Shown here one piece after another: positions 1,177-33,588 of a DNA stretch of 64,000 nt. The notes under the pieces were generated by a model that was not told the origin of the DNA, ran no database searches, and saw nothing but the letters and a program-made list of their open reading frames with translations. Each line of letters opens with the position of its first letter. The stretch's first letter is position 1. A program made the translations under genes and the position numbers. Origin of the DNA: an uncultured Candidatus Micrarchaeota archaeon (lineage in GTDB: Archaea > Micrarchaeota > Micrarchaeia > Micrarchaeales > Micrarchaeaceae); the NCBI GenBank assembly GCA_963741095.1, contig CAVUGN010000005.1, positions 96,001-160,000 of the forward strand, read 5' to 3'.

Positions 1177-1449
1177 TTACCTTGCCTTCCTGTACTCGTA
1201 ATGGCTTACGACCCTGCCGTATTTGTTGCTTATGTTCCTTGAGATGTAATTTGTCACATTGACAGGCTCCTTCCCGTTCATGAACCTGGCCTTGACTATG
1301 AAGCCGCAGTCGCCCTCCGTCAGGTAAACGGATTCTACAGGCTCGAGCGCTATGAGCTTCTCCGCAAGCTCTCCAGCGTTGACACTGGGCCTTGGTTTTA
1401 TGAAGTAGAACTTGCTCATCAGGCCGCGCTTCGTGCTGCCGTTCCTCAT
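1177..1449 (-). CDS. Stand-alone Lrp/AsnC ligand-binding (RAM)-like domain protein
   Basis: KFYFIKPRP...ELAEKLIALEPVESVYLTEGDCGFIVKARF matches the RAM pattern (V-E-x-V-Y-x-x-x-G-D). Start placed at ATG 1449, which overlaps the upstream stop as ATGA. Confidence 0.7.
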   Translation of the reverse strand: MRNGSTKRGLMSKFYFIKPRPSVNAGELAEKLIALEPVESVYLTEGDCGFIVKARFMNGKEPVNVTNYISRNISNKYGRVVSHYEYRKAR

Positions 1450-1901: not shown

Positions 1902-3290
1902 ATGAAAGACGTTCCAAAGGCGATTAGCGAGGAATTTGGAAGATTGAAGAGGAAATATCCCTTTTATATAGTCCTTACGAGCAAGAACGGTCACTATTAT
2001 GTTTACAGGCACCAAGGGCAGTATGTAAAAAGAACAGGAAAGATCAGATCGATAAGGACGTACTTAGGTAGGATAACTCCATCTGGAGAATTCCTGAAGC
2101 GGGCAGTATTGACGGACAATGACGTAGAAAAAGCAAAAGCTATTATTCTAGCCCATGGAGGCAAGGTGGTACTACCTGAGGAGAGTTTGGTAATCAAACC
2201 CGAAGGTGCAAATGAAGAACCATATGAAAGGCGGATATTGACTTTGTTGAGCACTGATGCGCGCATGGGTGTTTTAGAGATAAGCAAGCAGATTGGATTG
2301 TCTTACGCTGCAACGTTAAACAGGATAAAAAAGATAGAAGAGAAATATGGGATAAAATACACAATCGAATATGGATTTCTTGATAGATTTAATATTCATA
2401 GATTTCTTGCGATAGCAAAGTTTACGGACAAAATACCCGATACACTAGAAGTCAAAAAATTGATAGAGTCAGAGCCCAGAGTCCAACTTGCATTGTGGGC
2501 AGTAGGTGGGTATAATTTGATACTTTTTATGCTCGCATCCACTCCAGCAGAAGCCGAAGACTTAGTTTACAAACTGCGATCAGATCCAGTATTGAGTGAT
2601 TACTCGGCAGATTGGTATTCGAGCTATTTTACTCACGGGTATGGGTATGTTCCTTTGAGGGATAAATTTTTTGAGTTGATCAAAGAGAGAGTTTGGCGAA
2701 GGACGAAGGAATCGCCTAGAAAGTTACCGGGGCAGATTTTCTACAGAGAGTACGCTACAATGAGAGAGTTAAATGTAAATGGATTGGCGGACTTCTCTTT
2801 TATAGATAAAAAGTATAAGTTGAATAAGGGTTCCGCACAGTACACTTATCATGAATTGATAAAAAATGAGAATGTTTGGAGAGTAACCGTAACAATGGAA
2901 AACCCCCCGATAAAGGATGTTGTAATAATAAATTTAGAGCAGGAAGATATCGGAAAATTTAACCGGAATAGGAGAGAGTATTTGTTACATCAGTTAGATG
3001 AAAGTGATGCTCCGCTTAATAAGTATCTTTACACGGGTGATGTTGGTTCTCCTTACGGCATTATGCTTGTAGCTCCGTTGTATAAGGAGGGGGATTTGGA
3101 TGCATTATTATCTACCTTAAACAAAGTTGCAAAAGGTGTACGGATAAGAACTTCGATTGTAAGTAGCATATTGGTAGGCAATCTTGGATTCCGAAAGATA
3201 GATTCAACTAAAACGTTATGGTATAAACTTATGAAAAATCGGATTGAAGAACAGATAGTAAGTGCTAAAACTGATGATGAGAACGATTAG
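1902..3290 (+). CDS. Large Lrp/AsnC-family transcriptional regulator (extra N-terminal domain plus two HTH-RAM-like modules)
   Basis: AsnC HTH ERRILTLLSTDARMGVLEISKQIGLSYAATLNRIKKIEEK; RAM-like VQLALWAVGGYNLILF; second HTH-like FSFIDKKYKLNKGSAQYTYHEL; TATA-like TTAAATA upstream; AT-rich. Confidence 0.8.
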   Translation: MKDVPKAISEEFGRLKRKYPFYIVLTSKNGHYYVYRHQGQYVKRTGKIRSIRTYLGRITPSGEFLKRAVLTDNDVEKAKAIILAHGGKVVLPEESLVIKPEGANEEPYERRILTLLSTDARMGVLEISKQIGLSYAATLNRIKKIEEKYGIKYTIEYGFLDRFNIHRFLAIAKFTDKIPDTLEVKKLIESEPRVQLALWAVGGYNLILFMLASTPAEAEDLVYKLRSDPVLSDYSADWYSSYFTHGYGYVPLRDKFFELIKERVWRRTKESPRKLPGQIFYREYATMRELNVNGLADFSFIDKKYKLNKGSAQYTYHELIKNENVWRVTVTMENPPIKDVVIINLEQEDIGKFNRNRREYLLHQLDESDAPLNKYLYTGDVGSPYGIMLVAPLYKEGDLDALLSTLNKVAKGVRIRTSIVSSILVGNLGFRKIDSTKTLWYKLMKNRIEEQIVSAKTDDEND

Positions 3291-3299
3291 ATGATATGT

Positions 3300-3323
3300 T
3301 TATGCGCCGTTTCCTCCCAACAT
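3300..3323 (-). CDS. Micropeptide MLGGNGA (MxGG array copy 5)
   Basis: ATG TTG GGA GGA AAC GGC GCA TAA; AGGTGA immediately upstream; ATTTAAAG box 30 nt upstream. Confidence 0.6.
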   Translation of the reverse strand: MLGGNGA

Positions 3324-3370
3324 GATTTCACCTGTTATAGCATCTCGGATAAGCTTTAAATGGCTTGCGT
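3324..3370 (-). promoter_or_regulatory. Repeated promoter/leader unit C (TATA ATTTAAAG, GAGATGCT, AGGTGA)
   Basis: Minus strand CCATTTAAAGCTTATCCGAGATGCTATAACAGGTGAAATC-ATG; paralogous to units A and B. Confidence 0.6.
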
Positions 3371-3519
3371 TTTGCATGATTTAGCGCATTCTATGCGTTG
3401 CTCGAATTGCCTCTTTACGCTCTTTTAGATTACAATATAACGGGTATAAACCAGTAAAGAATCGGTTAAACGAGGATTAAATAGTACAGCTACTAGCTAA
3501 GAATAGTTTAATTACCTGT

Positions 3520-3546
3520 TTATGTTGCTCCGTCTCCGCCTGTCAT
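3520..3546 (-). CDS. Micropeptide MTGGDGAT (MxGG array copy 4)
   Basis: ATG ACA GGC GGA GAC GGA GCA ACA TAA; AGTGAG upstream; ATTTAAGG box 29 nt upstream. Confidence 0.6.
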   Translation of the reverse strand: MTGGDGAT

Positions 3547-3592
3547 AATCTCACTGTTTAAGCATCTCTGAGAAGCCTTAAATATTTTGCGC
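3547..3592 (-). promoter_or_regulatory. Repeated promoter/leader unit B (BRE-like CAAAAT, TATA ATTTAAGG)
   Basis: Minus strand GCAAAATATTTAAGGCTTCTCAGAGATGCTTAAACAGTGAGATT-ATG. Confidence 0.6.
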
Positions 3593-3619
3593 CAAGCAAA
3601 ATTTTCTTCTAAAAGGGCC

Positions 3620-3643
3620 TTATGGTCCATCGCCACCGTTCAT
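3620..3643 (-). CDS. Micropeptide MNGGDGP (MxGG array copy 3)
   Basis: ATG AAC GGT GGC GAT GGA CCA TAA; third ORF downstream of promoter A; weak SD. Confidence 0.5.
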   Translation of the reverse strand: MNGGDGP

Positions 3644-3662
3644 CTTTTAGTCATTTCCGATA

Positions 3663-3686
3663 TTACCCCGTTTCGCCTCCTTCCAT
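3663..3686 (-). CDS. Micropeptide MEGGETG (MxGG array copy 2)
   Basis: ATG GAA GGA GGC GAA ACG GGG TAA; AAGTGAAATC upstream. Confidence 0.55.
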   Translation of the reverse strand: MEGGETG

Positions 3687-3705
3687 GATTTCACTTATCT
3701 GGATA

Positions 3706-3732
3706 TTAACCTCCAGATCCGCCTCCTTCCAT
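3706..3732 (-). CDS. Micropeptide MEGGGSGG (MxGG array copy 1)
   Basis: ATG GAA GGA GGC GGA TCT GGA GGT TAA; AGTGAG upstream; ATTTAAGG box 28 nt upstream. Confidence 0.6.
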   Translation of the reverse strand: MEGGGSGG

Positions 3733-3778
3733 GATCTCACTGACAGCTATCTCTGGAAAGCCTTAAATGGTTTTTGTC
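3733..3778 (-). promoter_or_regulatory. Repeated promoter/leader unit A (BRE-like AAAAACC, TATA ATTTAAGG)
   Basis: Minus strand CAAAAACCATTTAAGGCTTTCCAGAGATAGCTGTCAGTGAGATC-ATG. Confidence 0.6.
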
Positions 3779-3857
3779 TTTTATGGCCAAGGGATATGAG
3801 CACACTTTCATGCGCTCCTTGAGTTGATAATATAAATCTTAAGGTAGAATCGTTACC

Positions 3858-4055
3858 ATGGGAATTTTGGACCATCTAAAGAAGTTCATCGACGACTGCA
3901 AGCACGTGCTGAGCGTAAGCTACAAGCCGAGCCCGGAGGAGTTCAGCAAGAGCGCGAAGCTGATAATAATAGGCATACTGCTCATGGGCCTCCTGGGCTT
4001 CCTGATAGCGGTCGTAATCTCTTACATCATAACGGGCTCGCTCACGCTCATATGA
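3858..4055 (+). CDS. secE: Protein translocase subunit SecE / Sec61-gamma
   Basis: FIDDCKHVLSVSYKPSPEEFSKSAK followed by one TM helix, matching the archaeal SecE KP-x-x-EEF motif. Confidence 0.92.
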   Translation: MGILDHLKKFIDDCKHVLSVSYKPSPEEFSKSAKLIIIGILLMGLLGFLIAVVISYIITGSLTLI

Positions 4056-4059
4056 TTGG

Positions 4060-4845
4060 ATGAAGGCAAAGATAGACTTCACGAGATCCGCGCAGCAGAA
4101 CGCCAACGAGTACTACAAGGCATCGAAGAAGCTCGCCTCGAAGAAGGAGGGCGCCGAGAGGACCGTGAAGGAACTGGAGAAGAAGCTCGCAGATGCGGAG
4201 AGGAGGCAGCAGAAGCGGGAGTTGAAGGAGAAGCAGAAGTTCATGATCAAGAAGGAGAAGCAGTGGTACGAGAAGTTCCACTGGTTCTTCACCAGCACAG
4301 GCATGCTCGCCGTGGGGGGCAGGGACGCACAGCAGAACGACATGATAAACTCGAGGTACTTCTCTGAAAATGACTTATTCTTCCATGCGGAGATATTCGG
4401 CGCTTCTGTTGTAGTGCTAAAGGATGGGCTGAACGCGAACAAGGAGACAAAGGAAGAGGTGGCCCAGTTCGCCGCGTGCTATTCCAGCGCCTGGGAGTCC
4501 GGGATGAAGGTCGTTGACGTCTACGCGATGAGGCGCGAGCAGATAAGCAAGCTTACCGGCAAGGCTGGCAGTTTTCTACTTAGTGGCGAGCGCGAATGGC
4601 ACAGGAACACGCAGCTGTCGCTCGTGATGTTCATGAAGGAGGGAAGGCTCAATGCAGTTCCTGCGGTTGCCTTCGAGAGGATGGACAAGACCCAGAAGCA
4701 CGTCTTCATCAACCAGGGCAACAGGAAGAAGTCCGACGCGGCGAAGAGGATATCGGAATTGTTGGAGTACAACGACCTCGACGAGATAATAAGGCAGTTG
4801 CCCACGGGCAGCTTCAGCGTCACCACAGGCACGCAGAAGCAGTGA
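4060..4845 (+). CDS. NFACT-R (DUF814) RNA-binding domain protein, Rqc2/NEMF-like but short
   Basis: NANEYYKASKK coiled coil, WYEKFHWF, GGRDAQQND, FFHAEIFGAS motifs. Confidence 0.88.
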   Translation: MKAKIDFTRSAQQNANEYYKASKKLASKKEGAERTVKELEKKLADAERRQQKRELKEKQKFMIKKEKQWYEKFHWFFTSTGMLAVGGRDAQQNDMINSRYFSENDLFFHAEIFGASVVVLKDGLNANKETKEEVAQFAACYSSAWESGMKVVDVYAMRREQISKLTGKAGSFLLSGEREWHRNTQLSLVMFMKEGRLNAVPAVAFERMDKTQKHVFINQGNRKKSDAAKRISELLEYNDLDEIIRQLPTGSFSVTTGTQKQ

Positions 4846-5610
4846 TCATTGCGGCAGGTGCCTGAGCAGACCGCTTATGTCCTTGTCCTCGATTATGAAG
4901 CTCGCCGCCGCTCTTACGTCAGCGCTCTTCGTGTTTATGACGACGGGCAATCCGACTCTCCCTAGTATGGGTATGTCGTTTCTTGCATCGCCGACGTAGG
5001 AGCACTGCTGCATGCCGATGTTCATCTCGCGGCATATGCTGCGCAGCGCCGTGACCTTGCCCTCGTCGTCCAGGCCGGTTATTATGCCGCCCTTCAGCCT
5101 GCCGCTCTTGCTGAAGATCAGCTCGTTCGCCAGGTAGAGATAATCGACCTTTATATCGTACTTCTTGGCGAAGAGGTCGTAGACGTTCCTTATGCCGCCG
5201 GATATGATGGCCGTCTTTATGCCCCGCTTTTCCAGCTCGCTGAACAGCTCCTTGGTTCCGGGCATGATCTCGGTCTGGTTCATTATTATGTCCTCGAGCA
5301 TCTGCCTCGTCAGTCCGTGCTTTTTGAAGTTGTCGATGGACTTCGACACCCAGGTCACGTAGTCGAACTCCCCGCGGTAATAGGCGTCGCGCATCTCCCT
5401 GCGCTCGGCTTCCGCGCCCAGCGCGTCGCCGATTAGCTCCCATGTTGATTTCTTGACGAACTCCCAGGTGCTCTTCGAACCGGGACTGTGGATCAGAGTG
5501 CCCTCGAAATCGAAGACCGCGAGTTTTATGCTGTGGACCCTGTGGCTGCTGCCGCTCGCTGAGGCATTTTGCACCGCTGCGGCGTTGGCATTCGCCTGTT
5601 TTTCAGCCAT
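4846..5610 (-). CDS. HAD-superfamily phosphatase (SerB-like, HAD-IB)
   Basis: AVFDFEGTL, ISGG, K and VGDARND motifs. Confidence 0.85.
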   Translation of the reverse strand: MAEKQANANAAAVQNASASGSSHRVHSIKLAVFDFEGTLIHSPGSKSTWEFVKKSTWELIGDALGAEAERREMRDAYYRGEFDYVTWVSKSIDNFKKHGLTRQMLEDIIMNQTEIMPGTKELFSELEKRGIKTAIISGGIRNVYDLFAKKYDIKVDYLYLANELIFSKSGRLKGGIITGLDDEGKVTALRSICREMNIGMQQCSYVGDARNDIPILGRVGLPVVINTKSADVRAAASFIIEDKDISGLLRHLPQ

Positions 5611-5778
5611 GGAATTCACGTTATGGCTGTTCTGTTCTGTCAGATATTTATGACTTTTTATTAAAAATGTGAAAATTTAGGAGCGATAGTTCGTAATTGG
5701 ACTACGCAGGATAAATTGCATATATAAGTTTAAAAGATACATTTATATATCTAATTGATATATAGATAATTGATAAAC

Positions 5779-6057
5779 ATGGCTTCGGAAAAACAGGTCC
5801 AGATGCAGATTCAGCATTCACCTACATTGAACACTGTGCTCATGGTTGAAAAAGTCCTTAGGGATAGTAAGGAAGTTATCAAGATATCGGAGCTGAAACG
5901 AAGATTGCCTAGAAAGGTGATGCATTCGACTCTTCTTGAGATTTTGGATTATCTTCAAGTTAGTGGCAAGATACTGATAACTACGAAGGGGGTGGTGTGG
6001 ACTTACACCCCCAAAGACGCGATGGATAAACTGATAAAAGGAGGGTTGGAACTGTGA
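5779..6057 (+). CDS. Small winged-helix protein, probable antitoxin
   Basis: HSPTLNTVLMVEKVL...ISELKRRLPRKVMHSTLLEILDYL; stop overlaps the downstream GTG (GTGA). Confidence 0.7.
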   Translation: MASEKQVQMQIQHSPTLNTVLMVEKVLRDSKEVIKISELKRRLPRKVMHSTLLEILDYLQVSGKILITTKGVVWTYTPKDAMDKLIKGGLEL

Positions 6058-6419
6058 AGACACCGAAAATCATAAGACTGATTCTCAAAAACCAGGCTAA
6101 AGAGGCATACGAAATGCTTTGTAAGGTTGTAGAAGAGTAGAGAGATAAGGGAAGGACGAACTCGGAGGAGATGCAATTGCTGAAATCGATAAACAATAAG
6201 ATAGAGATTCTCAAGTACAATCCGACGTACGGGCAGGGCATGGCAAAAGAGCAGATACCAAAGACCCTTGATGTCGATAATTTATTCAGAGTGGAACTTA
6301 CCCATTATTGGAGGATGCTGTACACAATCAGGACCAATGAGGTGGAGATAGTGAATTTTGTCTTGTACATAATAGATCACAAAGAGTACGACAGGATGTT
6401 GGGCTACAGAAAAAGATGA
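6054..6419 (+). pseudogene. RelE/ParE-like toxin gene interrupted by an in-frame TAG at 6138-6140
   Basis: GTG 6054 reads MKTPKIIRLILKNQAKEAYEMLCKVVEE*RDKGRTNSEEMQLLKSI... in one frame; C-terminal LKYNPTYG, LFRVELTHYWRMLYTI and IIDHKEYDRMLGY are RelE-like. Confidence 0.7.
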
Positions 6420-6478
6420 TTGTTGGAAGGTTCCCGGCAATCTGGATTTCGATGCCTGTTTTTATTTTAAAGATAAGA

Positions 6479-6564
6479 TGCAAGGAGAGAGATTTGAACT
6501 CTCGAACCCGCTAGGGGATCAGGCCCTGAACCTGACGCATTTGACCAAGCTTTGCTATCCTTGC
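6479..6564 (-). tRNA. tRNA-Leu(CAG)
   Basis: GCAAGGA/TCCTTGC-A acceptor stem, anticodon arm TCAGG-TTCAGGG-CCTGA, long variable arm, GTTCAAATC T-loop. Confidence 0.95.
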
Positions 6565-6631
6565 ATGATTCTGTTTGGCAACTTCAGGATTTATATCTTA
6601 TTATCTAAGTGATATTGCTTTATTGGTTTCT

Positions 6632-33258: not shown

Positions 33259-33588
33259 ATGGAAAACAATCAGAATCAGCTCAACATCAACCTTTCACAA
33301 TCCAAGATAAAGCCGATATTTGCAGACGAGGTGGCGATAGCGCTCAGGATAAAGGCCTACAAGAACGAGAAGGGCAAGGTGGAGAAGGAGGCGCACTTCA
33401 GCCTGATATTCATAGACATGATGAAGCAGCAGCCCATCGGCGAGTTCGTGATAAACAGGACCACGGCCAAGGCCTTCGCCCAGATCCTGGCGCAGAACAT
33501 AGCTGAACTGGACAAGCAGCTGGCGAACAAGGACATGCCCAAGCCGCCGGAAGTGAAGACGACCGGGGACCAGACCTCGTACAGGTAA
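33259..33588 (+). CDS. DUF3467-like small protein
   Basis: PIFADEV...FSLIFID...TAKAFAQILAQNI; TATA 30 nt upstream with GTGA before ATG. Confidence 0.65.
   Translation: MENNQNQLNINLSQSKIKPIFADEVAIALRIKAYKNEKGKVEKEAHFSLIFIDMMKQQPIGEFVINRTTAKAFAQILAQNIAELDKQLANKDMPKPPEVKTTGDQTSYR

Follow-up and report, generated by a model that had tools for sequence, protein, structure and literature searches.

A family of very short glycine-rich open reading frames tail-to-tail with double Lrp/AsnC-like genes in Micrarchaeales

Five micro-ORFs and their promoter units

The locus described here lies in a stretch of 64,000 nucleotides (nt) from an uncultured Candidatus Micrarchaeota archaeon (GenBank assembly GCA_963741095.1, contig CAVUGN010000005.1, positions 96,001 to 160,000 of the forward strand), which we refer to as the window. 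A gap of 567 nt separates secE from the gene of a 462-amino-acid (aa) protein with two Lrp/AsnC-like modules, and in this gap five minus-strand open reading frames (micro-ORFs) encode peptides of the form M-x-G-G. The coordinates that an initial annotation, made from the sequence alone, gave for them are exact, and each begins with ATG and ends with TAA. The features of the cassette are as follows (HTH, helix-turn-helix; wHTH, winged HTH).

1902-3290, plus strand: 462-aa double Lrp/AsnC-like protein, consisting of an N-terminal domain, wHTH and RAM, wHTH and RAM, and a C-terminal helix (domains partly assigned from a model, see below)
3300-3323, minus strand: micro-ORF 5, MLGGNGA, ATG at 3323, TAA; 9 nt from the Lrp-like stop
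3324-3372, minus strand: promoter unit 3, TATA start at 3360, GGTGAAATC before ATG; nhmmer E 2.7e-12
3520-3546, minus strand: micro-ORF 4, MTGGDGAT, ATG at 3546, TAA
3547-3594, minus strand: promoter unit 2, TATA start at 3582; nhmmer E 3.1e-14
3598-3614, minus strand: two T4 runs just 3' of micro-ORF 3, a candidate archaeal oligo-T terminator
3620-3643, minus strand: micro-ORF 3, MNGGDGP, TAA
3663-3686, minus strand: micro-ORF 2, MEGGETG, TAA; GTGAAATC before ATG, with no promoter of its own
3706-3732, minus strand: micro-ORF 1, MEGGGSGG, ATG start, TAA stop
3733-3779, minus strand: promoter unit 1, TATA box TTTAAGG from 3767, CCAGAGAT box, GTGAGATC adjoining ATG; nhmmer E 3.2e-12

All five M-x-G-G ORFs of the gap are on its minus strand (plus strand, 0), and only 14 such ORFs are present across both strands of the 1.08-Mb genome. 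When the gap is shuffled with its dinucleotide composition preserved (n = 5000), the mean number is 0.0048 and the maximum is 1; 24 of the 5000 shuffles have at least one M-x-G-G ORF, and 0/5000 have five. By this test, which the initial annotation had put forward, the count is far above chance frequency, and chance is excluded as the cause of the array. A search for sequencing runs that contain the stretch listed five DNA runs from two studies and no RNA run, a blank that counts neither way; reads from four of the DNA runs gave same-strain contigs, with a G>A change at 2606 as the single listed difference.

The promoter units share one order of elements, namely a TATA box (TTTAAGG or TTTAAAG), a C(C/T)(A/C)GAGAT box, (G)GTGA(G/A)AT(C/T) and the ATG. 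The pattern TTTAARGCTTNNCNGAGAT has three minus-strand matches in the window (3342-3360, 3564-3582 and 3749-3767) versus 0.04 expected, and 0/100 shuffles reach three. The repeated upstream unit of the initial annotation is thus real, and it is present before micro-ORFs 1, 4 and 5 only. The distance of 28-30 nt reported between TATA and ATG holds when counted from the end of the 7-nt box (from the TATA start it is 35, 36 and 37 nt), and the ordinary gene start near 33259 does have a TATA box and GTGAT at equal spacing. Micro-ORFs 2 and 3, which follow ORF 1 at a short distance and have a weaker GTGA/purine motif before each, are probably the second and third cistrons of the unit-1 transcript, and the T4 runs at 3598-3614 may be where that transcript terminates.

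From these sequence features we infer that the units are transcribed. Between the paralogous cassettes of this genome (described below), the 50 nt before the ATG have a mean pairwise identity of 72%, versus 49% for the coding sequences. Conservation around the units begins only ~10 nt upstream of the TATA box, and by eye neither the boxes nor the repeats fit a C/D-box small RNA, a CRISPR leader or the ends of miniature inverted-repeat transposable elements. Searches of Rfam 15 at gathering thresholds return only tRNAs in the window, and at E <= 1 the sole row for region 3200-3900 is SNORD49 with E 0.99, which is chance level.

A genome-wide family paired with Lrp-like genes

The genome (1.08 Mb in 11 contigs, 52% GC) contains 16 copies of the ~50-nt promoter unit at E <= 5e-11 when searched with a profile, the next match having E 0.0024. 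In each of the 16, an ATG stands 35-37 nt past the TATA start and opens a Gly-rich ORF of 5-13 codons; with second and third cistrons included, the total is 21 micro-ORFs, for example MDGGGSGGGGGGG, MGDGGGA and MSEGGWS. The gene of the 462-aa protein is one of a set of 12 paralogs (31.5-37.3% identity, tblastn). Each of the 12 has at least one of the 16 units close behind its 3' end in convergent orientation, and none of the units is placed elsewhere. This agrees with the initial annotation in that the micro-ORFs form a diversified family with conserved promoters of their own; synteny with the Lrp-like family, which it had proposed to test, is present. The cassettes are AT-rich islands with 36-42% GC, compared with 52% for the genome. 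Six of the 12 occur within 25 kb of one contig in one orientation (G000:C11:33001-60000; L001, L002), and a pair of RAM-like small genes precedes two of these six.

We defined a strict micro-ORF as an ATG with a TATA box 28-48 nt upstream, followed by 4-20 codons with at least 30% Gly. Of the 24 strict matches in the genome, 16 fall within the 0.39% of strand-specific sequence that is downstream of, and convergent with, the paralogs. The other neighbour, secE, was also considered as a conserved partner and rejected: it adjoins only 1 of the 12 paralogs, and all 16 units are convergent to Lrp-like paralogs. Nor is there any SecE-like cluster among the flanking ORFs of the loci. Synteny with secE, which had been suggested together with the Lrp-like family, is therefore incidental, and the idea that the peptides modulate the translocon loses its sole basis.

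For the partner protein, the AF2 model has a pLDDT of 91.3 and, together with the sequence matches, supports the presence of Lrp/AsnC HTH and RAM domains. Pfam recognises an HTH_AsnC-type domain at aa 110-144 (E 6.9e-8, 32.6 bits versus a cut-off of 27) and HTH_24 (25.8 bits versus 21.9), and the second wHTH, at aa 281-321, is predicted by the AF2 model only. The sequence has no match to Pfam AsnC_trans_reg, the RAM domains being assigned by fold only, and it scores far below the cut-offs of NCBIfam equivalogs (e.g., LysM, 35.9 bits versus 180). Many single chains of Lrp/FFRP proteins match the fold over ~135 columns (E 3e-6 to 4e-4). The best Foldseek match in the PDB is the siroheme decarboxylase NirDL (4ch7; 358 columns, E 2e-11), which can be explained by the tandem Lrp architecture common to both proteins. 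An identity as NirDL/AhbAB was rejected, since the sequences are 11% identical, no Pfam or NCBIfam match points to it, and the conserved neighbours are micro-ORFs and a RAM-like gene. The N-terminal domain (aa 1-90, window 1902-2171) is modelled as alpha-beta-beta-beta-alpha with pLDDT 84.6 and has no PDB match at E <= 0.001, the best having E 0.2. Among the weak, non-significant rows for this domain are double-stranded-RNA-binding domains (E 0.26-0.9), which are intriguing given the likely sense/antisense overlap of 3' ends discussed below.

The RAM-like gene lies on the other side of the Lrp-like gene:

1177-1419, minus strand: 80-aa stand-alone RAM-like protein, divergent from the Lrp-like gene

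Its Pfam match to AsnC_trans_reg is weak and below the cut-off (E 0.026). In 23 of the 36 sources examined, a homolog is encoded upstream of the Lrp-like gene in divergent orientation, and the only conserved clusters in the flanks of the loci are the Lrp-like and RAM-like genes. One review describes a stand-alone RAM protein that forms a hetero-octamer with a full-length protein in vitro (PMC2995911).

Of 61 relatives, 55 have the protein family. Across a sample of the phylum, it occurs in 52/64 and 37/47 genomes of two families that belong to one order, and in only 1 of 139 genomes from 26 other families at E <= 1e-40; these tallies take in the unpublished genomes G074 and G206. Searches of metagenome contigs with the 462-aa protein and the promoter pattern gave no matches. 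For the comparison of loci we used the 12 of this genome and 89 foreign ones (29 as given, and 60 taken in order of E-value, passing over matches that lay too near the end of a contig). These 89 represent only part of the family's matches, 77 more of which lie beyond the best rows. Three loci with less than 100 nt downstream (L032, L075 and L076) were dropped, which leaves 98 counted loci, 86 of them foreign.

Strict micro-ORFs are found at 52/98 loci on the convergent strand and at 0/98 on the co-directional strand, so that the enrichment beside the Lrp-like family for which the initial annotation had proposed to scan related genomes is present. A looser test (TATA, a Shine-Dalgarno-like (SD-like) motif, ATG and 3-22 codons) gives 80/98 on the convergent strand versus 6/98 on the control strand, with a Gly content of 33% versus 6%. 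In 29 foreign loci with 1.5-kb flanks on both sides, strict matches number 18 downstream on the opposite strand, 3 upstream on the same strand and 0 elsewhere. Many of the loci that fail the Gly filter keep the architecture by eye, with ORFs such as MDGTR, MNGSY, MDSHRAAP and MTGPDWTN. At three loci the convergent slot is occupied instead by a family of longer ORFs:

L031:578-1451, plus strand: 56-61-aa ORF family, three tandem copies
L034:1291-1485, plus strand: 56-61-aa ORF family, abutting the Lrp-like stop codon with no gap
L060:568-750, plus strand: 56-61-aa ORF family

This family has invariant C-P and D-D residues, matches no Pfam family, and indicates that the slot is able to encode polypeptides.

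Very short ORFs easily arise by chance, and AT-rich islands (36-42% GC versus 52%) favour TATA-like words; on these grounds the cassettes might be decaying repeats or remnants of gene starts that resemble genes and have no function. We consider this highly improbable. The strand and position specificity of the counts (52/98 versus 0/98, and 80/98 versus 6/98) and the result of the shuffles (0/5000) argue against it, and two taxonomic families retain the cassette at a protein identity of only ~30-50%. It is almost certain, to judge from these comparisons of sequence, that the cassette is real and under selection.

Coding signs, convergent geometry and possible function

ATG sites with a TATA box and an SD-like motif, taken without regard to ORF length, number 94 in 72 of the 98 loci, compared with 14 on the control strand. 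Counted from these 94 ATGs, the frequency of G at codon positions 1, 2 and 3 is 0.60, 0.47 and 0.14, and the ORF is 5-10 aa long at 73 of them. At 48/94 sites the frame of the ATG reaches a stop before the other two frames do, versus 1/3 expected (p 3e-4, which is overstated because related loci are not independent), and all three stop codons are used (TAA 59, TAG 17, TGA 13). Of 68 strict micro-ORFs, 52 have an SD-like motif at -13 to -4; for comparison, the motif precedes 7% of ATGs overall in this genome and 21% of those that come first in long ORFs. In some lineages the TATA box is 49-56 nt from the ATG, which places the SD-like motif well inside the predicted leader. The encoded peptides contain 39.5% Gly and 12% hydrophobic residues overall. 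Among 89 peptides, 58 have Gly at position 3 and 37 have it at position 4, and the residue at the C-terminus is G in 25, T in 8, Q in 8, D in 7 and N in 3. One subfamily keeps its type of peptide (MGDGGGA, MNGDGGGA and MGGTGGGA) at 51-56% protein identity. Taken together, these signs suggest that the micro-ORFs are probably translated.

The micro-ORFs also lie close to the Lrp-like gene. At the 69 loci for which the distance was taken, the micro-ORF stop is separated from the Lrp-like stop by a median of 35 nt (quartiles 22-61.5, minimum 4). On the micro-ORF strand, the median distance from the micro-ORF stop to the end of the first T-run (four or more T) is 40 nt, and in 32/69 loci this run lies inside the Lrp-like coding sequence. 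On the Lrp strand, only 22/69 loci have a T-run ahead of the micro-ORF; in the other 47/69 the first one is within or beyond the micro-ORF, or there is none. With gaps this tight and T-runs so placed, the convergent transcripts of the micro-ORFs and of the Lrp-like gene likely overlap. In the window, where the stop of micro-ORF 5 is 9 nt from the Lrp-like stop, both transcripts would have to. This tail-to-tail geometry adds a cis or antisense component that was absent from the initial annotation.

The explanation that we favour, with a probability of roughly 45%, is that the micro-genes truly encode micropeptides and that they affect the neighbouring regulator by way of convergent transcription with overlap. 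Each unit would consist of an archaeal promoter (TATA and a box between TATA and start), a short GGTGA/GTGA leader, an ATG and 5-13 codons; its products would be Gly-rich, non-hydrophobic peptides of the M-x-G-G type, with one to three micro-ORFs per transcript and transcript ends at oligo-T runs. The units are set tail-to-tail, a few tens of nt from a lineage-specific double Lrp/AsnC protein of ~450 aa, and the convergent overlap would couple expression of the regulator and of the peptide gene, either by sense-antisense pairing of the RNAs or by interference between the two transcriptions. A shared operator may be provided by the conserved box that follows TATA. The translated micropeptides could in addition be the cognate small effectors of the adjacent RAM-domain protein. 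This proposal draws on a review according to which the small molecules known as of 2010 to bind Lrp-like regulators were all amino acids and the effector pocket is in the RAM domain (PMC2995911). That the peptide acts on the neighbouring protein is a tentative suggestion, below an even chance.

The main rival assigns the function to a cis-acting, translated micro-mRNA, in which convergent transcription and translation matter and the peptide is irrelevant. The antisense RNA, short and highly expressed, would overlap the 3' end of the Lrp-like mRNA, leading to transcriptional interference or an RNA duplex, and the tiny ORF would only load ribosomes, which stabilise the RNA or set the termination site. 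The microcin C literature provides a parallel, in that the mccA promoter is reported to yield two transcripts, with termination described as ribosome-controlled (PMC4231749). The fixed convergent orientation, the small median gap and the T-run positions given above are as expected of such an RNA, as are a promoter better conserved than the tail of the ORF, orthologs that retain the length and composition of the ORF and not its sequence, and the bias towards GGA and purines. Yet a pure antisense RNA would need no ATG, SD-like motif, frame or stop, all of which are kept. Gly at position 3 in 58/89 peptides, several cistrons with separate SD-like motifs on one transcript, and the 56-61-aa coding family in the slot at three loci also speak for a coding role, and we regard an irrelevant peptide as doubtful.

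Several observations weigh against our favoured explanation. Units are missing under the looser test at 18/98 loci, and the counts are drawn from related, non-independent genomes. Orthologous proteins that are 74.5% identical accompany MSEGGWS and MAANWGG, and a pair at 82% identity accompanies MGGCGDE and MVGNGGE; this divergence fits a requirement for any short Gly-rich ORF as well as it fits rapid co-evolution. Peptides of 5-13 aa that are not exported would be short-lived in the cell. The initial annotation had listed the Gly-Gly codon pairs of the five micro-ORFs correctly and had read their synonymous variation as selection on the peptide. The codons do vary as listed, and the variation is a weak sign of such selection, given that GGA makes up 67% of micro-ORF Gly codons (46/69 in this genome, 131/195 elsewhere) versus a share of 22% for the paralogs, 21% for the whole genome and 28% for codons 2-11 of long ORFs. 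Part of the constraint therefore concerns the RNA or the choice of tRNA and not the peptide; the tRNA-Gly genes found in this genome (94% complete) have the anticodons UCC and GCC only. Frame periodicity, SD-like motifs, narrow lengths and the use of three stop codons are a better argument for coding than the Gly codons.

The same bias bears on a further possibility, that the products are non-coding, purine-rich small RNAs whose GGA/GGAGG-rich 5' part is functional and whose ATG and stops are incidental. Targets might be pyrimidine-rich RNAs or the anti-Shine-Dalgarno end of 16S rRNA, for instance. GGA accounts for 67% of GGN triplets in a purine-rich sequence, and the predicted structure of unit-1 RNA is not significant (z -1.14), as expected of an RNA that pairs as a single strand. 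However, GGA is equally frequent before codons that begin with GG and before other codons (77/111 versus 100/153), which argues that GGAGG itself is not selected, and GGN stays in phase with the ATG despite a variable second codon. One third of the Gly codons are other than GGA, the in-frame stop comes first at 48/94 sites, SD-like motifs stand upstream of the ATG, and no Rfam family matches. We consider a non-coding role improbable.

Regardless of mechanism, the cassette occupies ~2% of a reduced genome of ~1 Mb (12 paralogs of ~1.4 kb plus their units), and such a share in a metabolism-poor genome implies an important function. Conservation that is specific for strand, position and frame across an order is unusually strong support for comparative genomics alone to provide. 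Standard gene callers are blind to genes of 5-13 codons, so that annotations of archaeal genomes may lack a whole class of products. Should the peptides be effectors, the Lrp/RAM proteins would gain their first member with a peptide ligand, and Archaea a new regulatory principle; should the element act in cis, it would represent a translated antisense switch of a new type. Taken furthest, each Micrarchaeales genome could hold up to a dozen insulated receptor-peptide pairs with unprocessed Gly-rich effectors of 5-13 residues, which on the sequence data we think rather unlikely. In that event encoded peptides would join free amino acids as effectors of RAM domains, the micro-ORFs would be among the smallest stand-alone genes of any organism, and a diversifying repertoire could serve the symbiont-host or self/non-self interactions of DPANN archaea. 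Cultured Micrarchaeota co-cultures exist (PMC8975820), and so the question is directly testable.

Surroundings and comparison with known systems

Two plus-strand genes follow the cassette:

3858-4055, plus strand: secE (Pfam SecE, E 1e-7)
4060-4845, plus strand: 261-aa protein with an NFACT-R_1 RNA-binding domain (E 5e-31)

Farther on, a second AT-rich island (5550-6450, 37-42% GC) stands beside a tRNA-Leu gene and contains small ORFs of 95 aa (5770-6057) and 82 aa (6171-6419) without a Pfam match; the island could be what remains of an integrated element, or else a small module of two genes. The tRNA-Leu(CAG) itself (6477-6565, minus strand, 89 nt) is called by ARAGORN and is absent from the Rfam tRNA matches at gathering threshold; the window's other three tRNAs are found by both. 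At the start of the window there is a cluster of paralogous ORFs (2-490 and 623-1165, both minus strand, and in the 3 kb upstream, G000:C5:93001-96000), which share the N-terminal pattern 'MTPERAEA(I/L)K.FV(Q/R)Q..G' and four members of which were grouped in the clustering of flanks. The ORF that runs off the window start is ankyrin-repeat-like by eye.

In the literature, searched without supplementary tables, we found no description of these ORFs or of their pairing with Lrp-like genes, and in the available text of the main Micrarchaeota co-culture paper (PMC8975820) the terms Lrp, AsnC, peptide, intergenic and small RNA have 0 occurrences. PADLOC returned only a weak HTH match (E 0.0075) and PHROGs nothing useful. 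The initial annotation recognised no described system in the array, and both the literature and the tests for membership of known classes agree. Within these limits of the literature we rate the cassette as undescribed and, in its combination of features, unlike any known kind.

Two classes of very short or small coding genes were rejected on their orientation or composition. Attenuator leaders have, like the micro-ORFs, a very short ORF rich in one amino acid with a terminator close behind. Leader peptides such as trpL and hisL are upstream of, and co-directional with, the operon that they regulate, whereas here only the antisense of the Lrp-like coding sequence follows the micro-ORFs. Type I toxin-antitoxin pairs also have convergent small and large transcripts that overlap at their 3' ends, an overlap that is likely here as well. 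Their toxins are hydrophobic peptides of ~20-60 aa, and the peptides of this study, at 39.5% Gly, 12% hydrophobic residues and mostly 5-10 aa, do not conform.

The mccA gene of microcin C (E. coli and relatives) is a match in size, being a translated ORF of ~7 codons. MccA is encoded in one operon with, and in the same direction as, the gene of its modifying enzyme, mccB, and ends in Asn. By analogy, the micro-ORF products could be minimal precursors or substrates that are modified in the manner of microcin C or consumed by an enzyme, possibly by the double-Lrp protein itself. Several different peptides could be encoded on one transcript in such a scheme, and the ORFs match the 7-aa MccA in size (PMC6495379 and PMC4010828). 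The best fold match of the partner is an enzyme, NirDL, as noted, for which the tandem Lrp architecture accounts. The length of MccA-type ORFs is conserved and their peptide sequences are said to vary (PMC6495379). The archaeal ORFs differ from mccA in being convergent to a regulator-like gene. Their C-terminal residue is not conserved (Asn is last in 3/89), and the flanks have no conserved modifying-enzyme family. For these reasons an MccA-like precursor was rejected as a class, and we judge a precursor role in general quite improbable.

The regulator-peptide pairs of the RNPP family offer a parallel in logic. In that family the receptor is a TPR protein, and the peptide is released by cleavage of a secreted pro-peptide of ~20-40 aa and then re-imported. 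In PrgX/prgQ the two transcripts overlap. In this pair, which belongs to pCF10, the gene of a regulator is reported to be linked to the gene of a short peptide that binds it (PMC5552905), and the two operons to regulate each other through RNA (PMC3181467). The same linkage, with a putative binding step, is proposed for the micro-ORF cassette. Membership of the RNPP type was rejected, since the candidate receptor has a double Lrp fold instead of TPR and the ORFs, with 5-13 codons and 12% hydrophobic residues, are signal-less and leave no room for a signal peptide.

On the protein side, the comparison is with Lrp/AsnC (feast/famine) regulators that respond to amino acids and have stand-alone RAM partners, such as FL11/DM1 of Pyrococcus. 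The HTH and RAM fold is common to these regulators and the 462-aa protein, and the cassette, too, includes a small RAM-only gene. The Micrarchaeales proteins differ from them in that a single chain combines two modules and an additional N-terminal domain, in that they are confined to one order, and in that each has a micro-ORF partner of its own.

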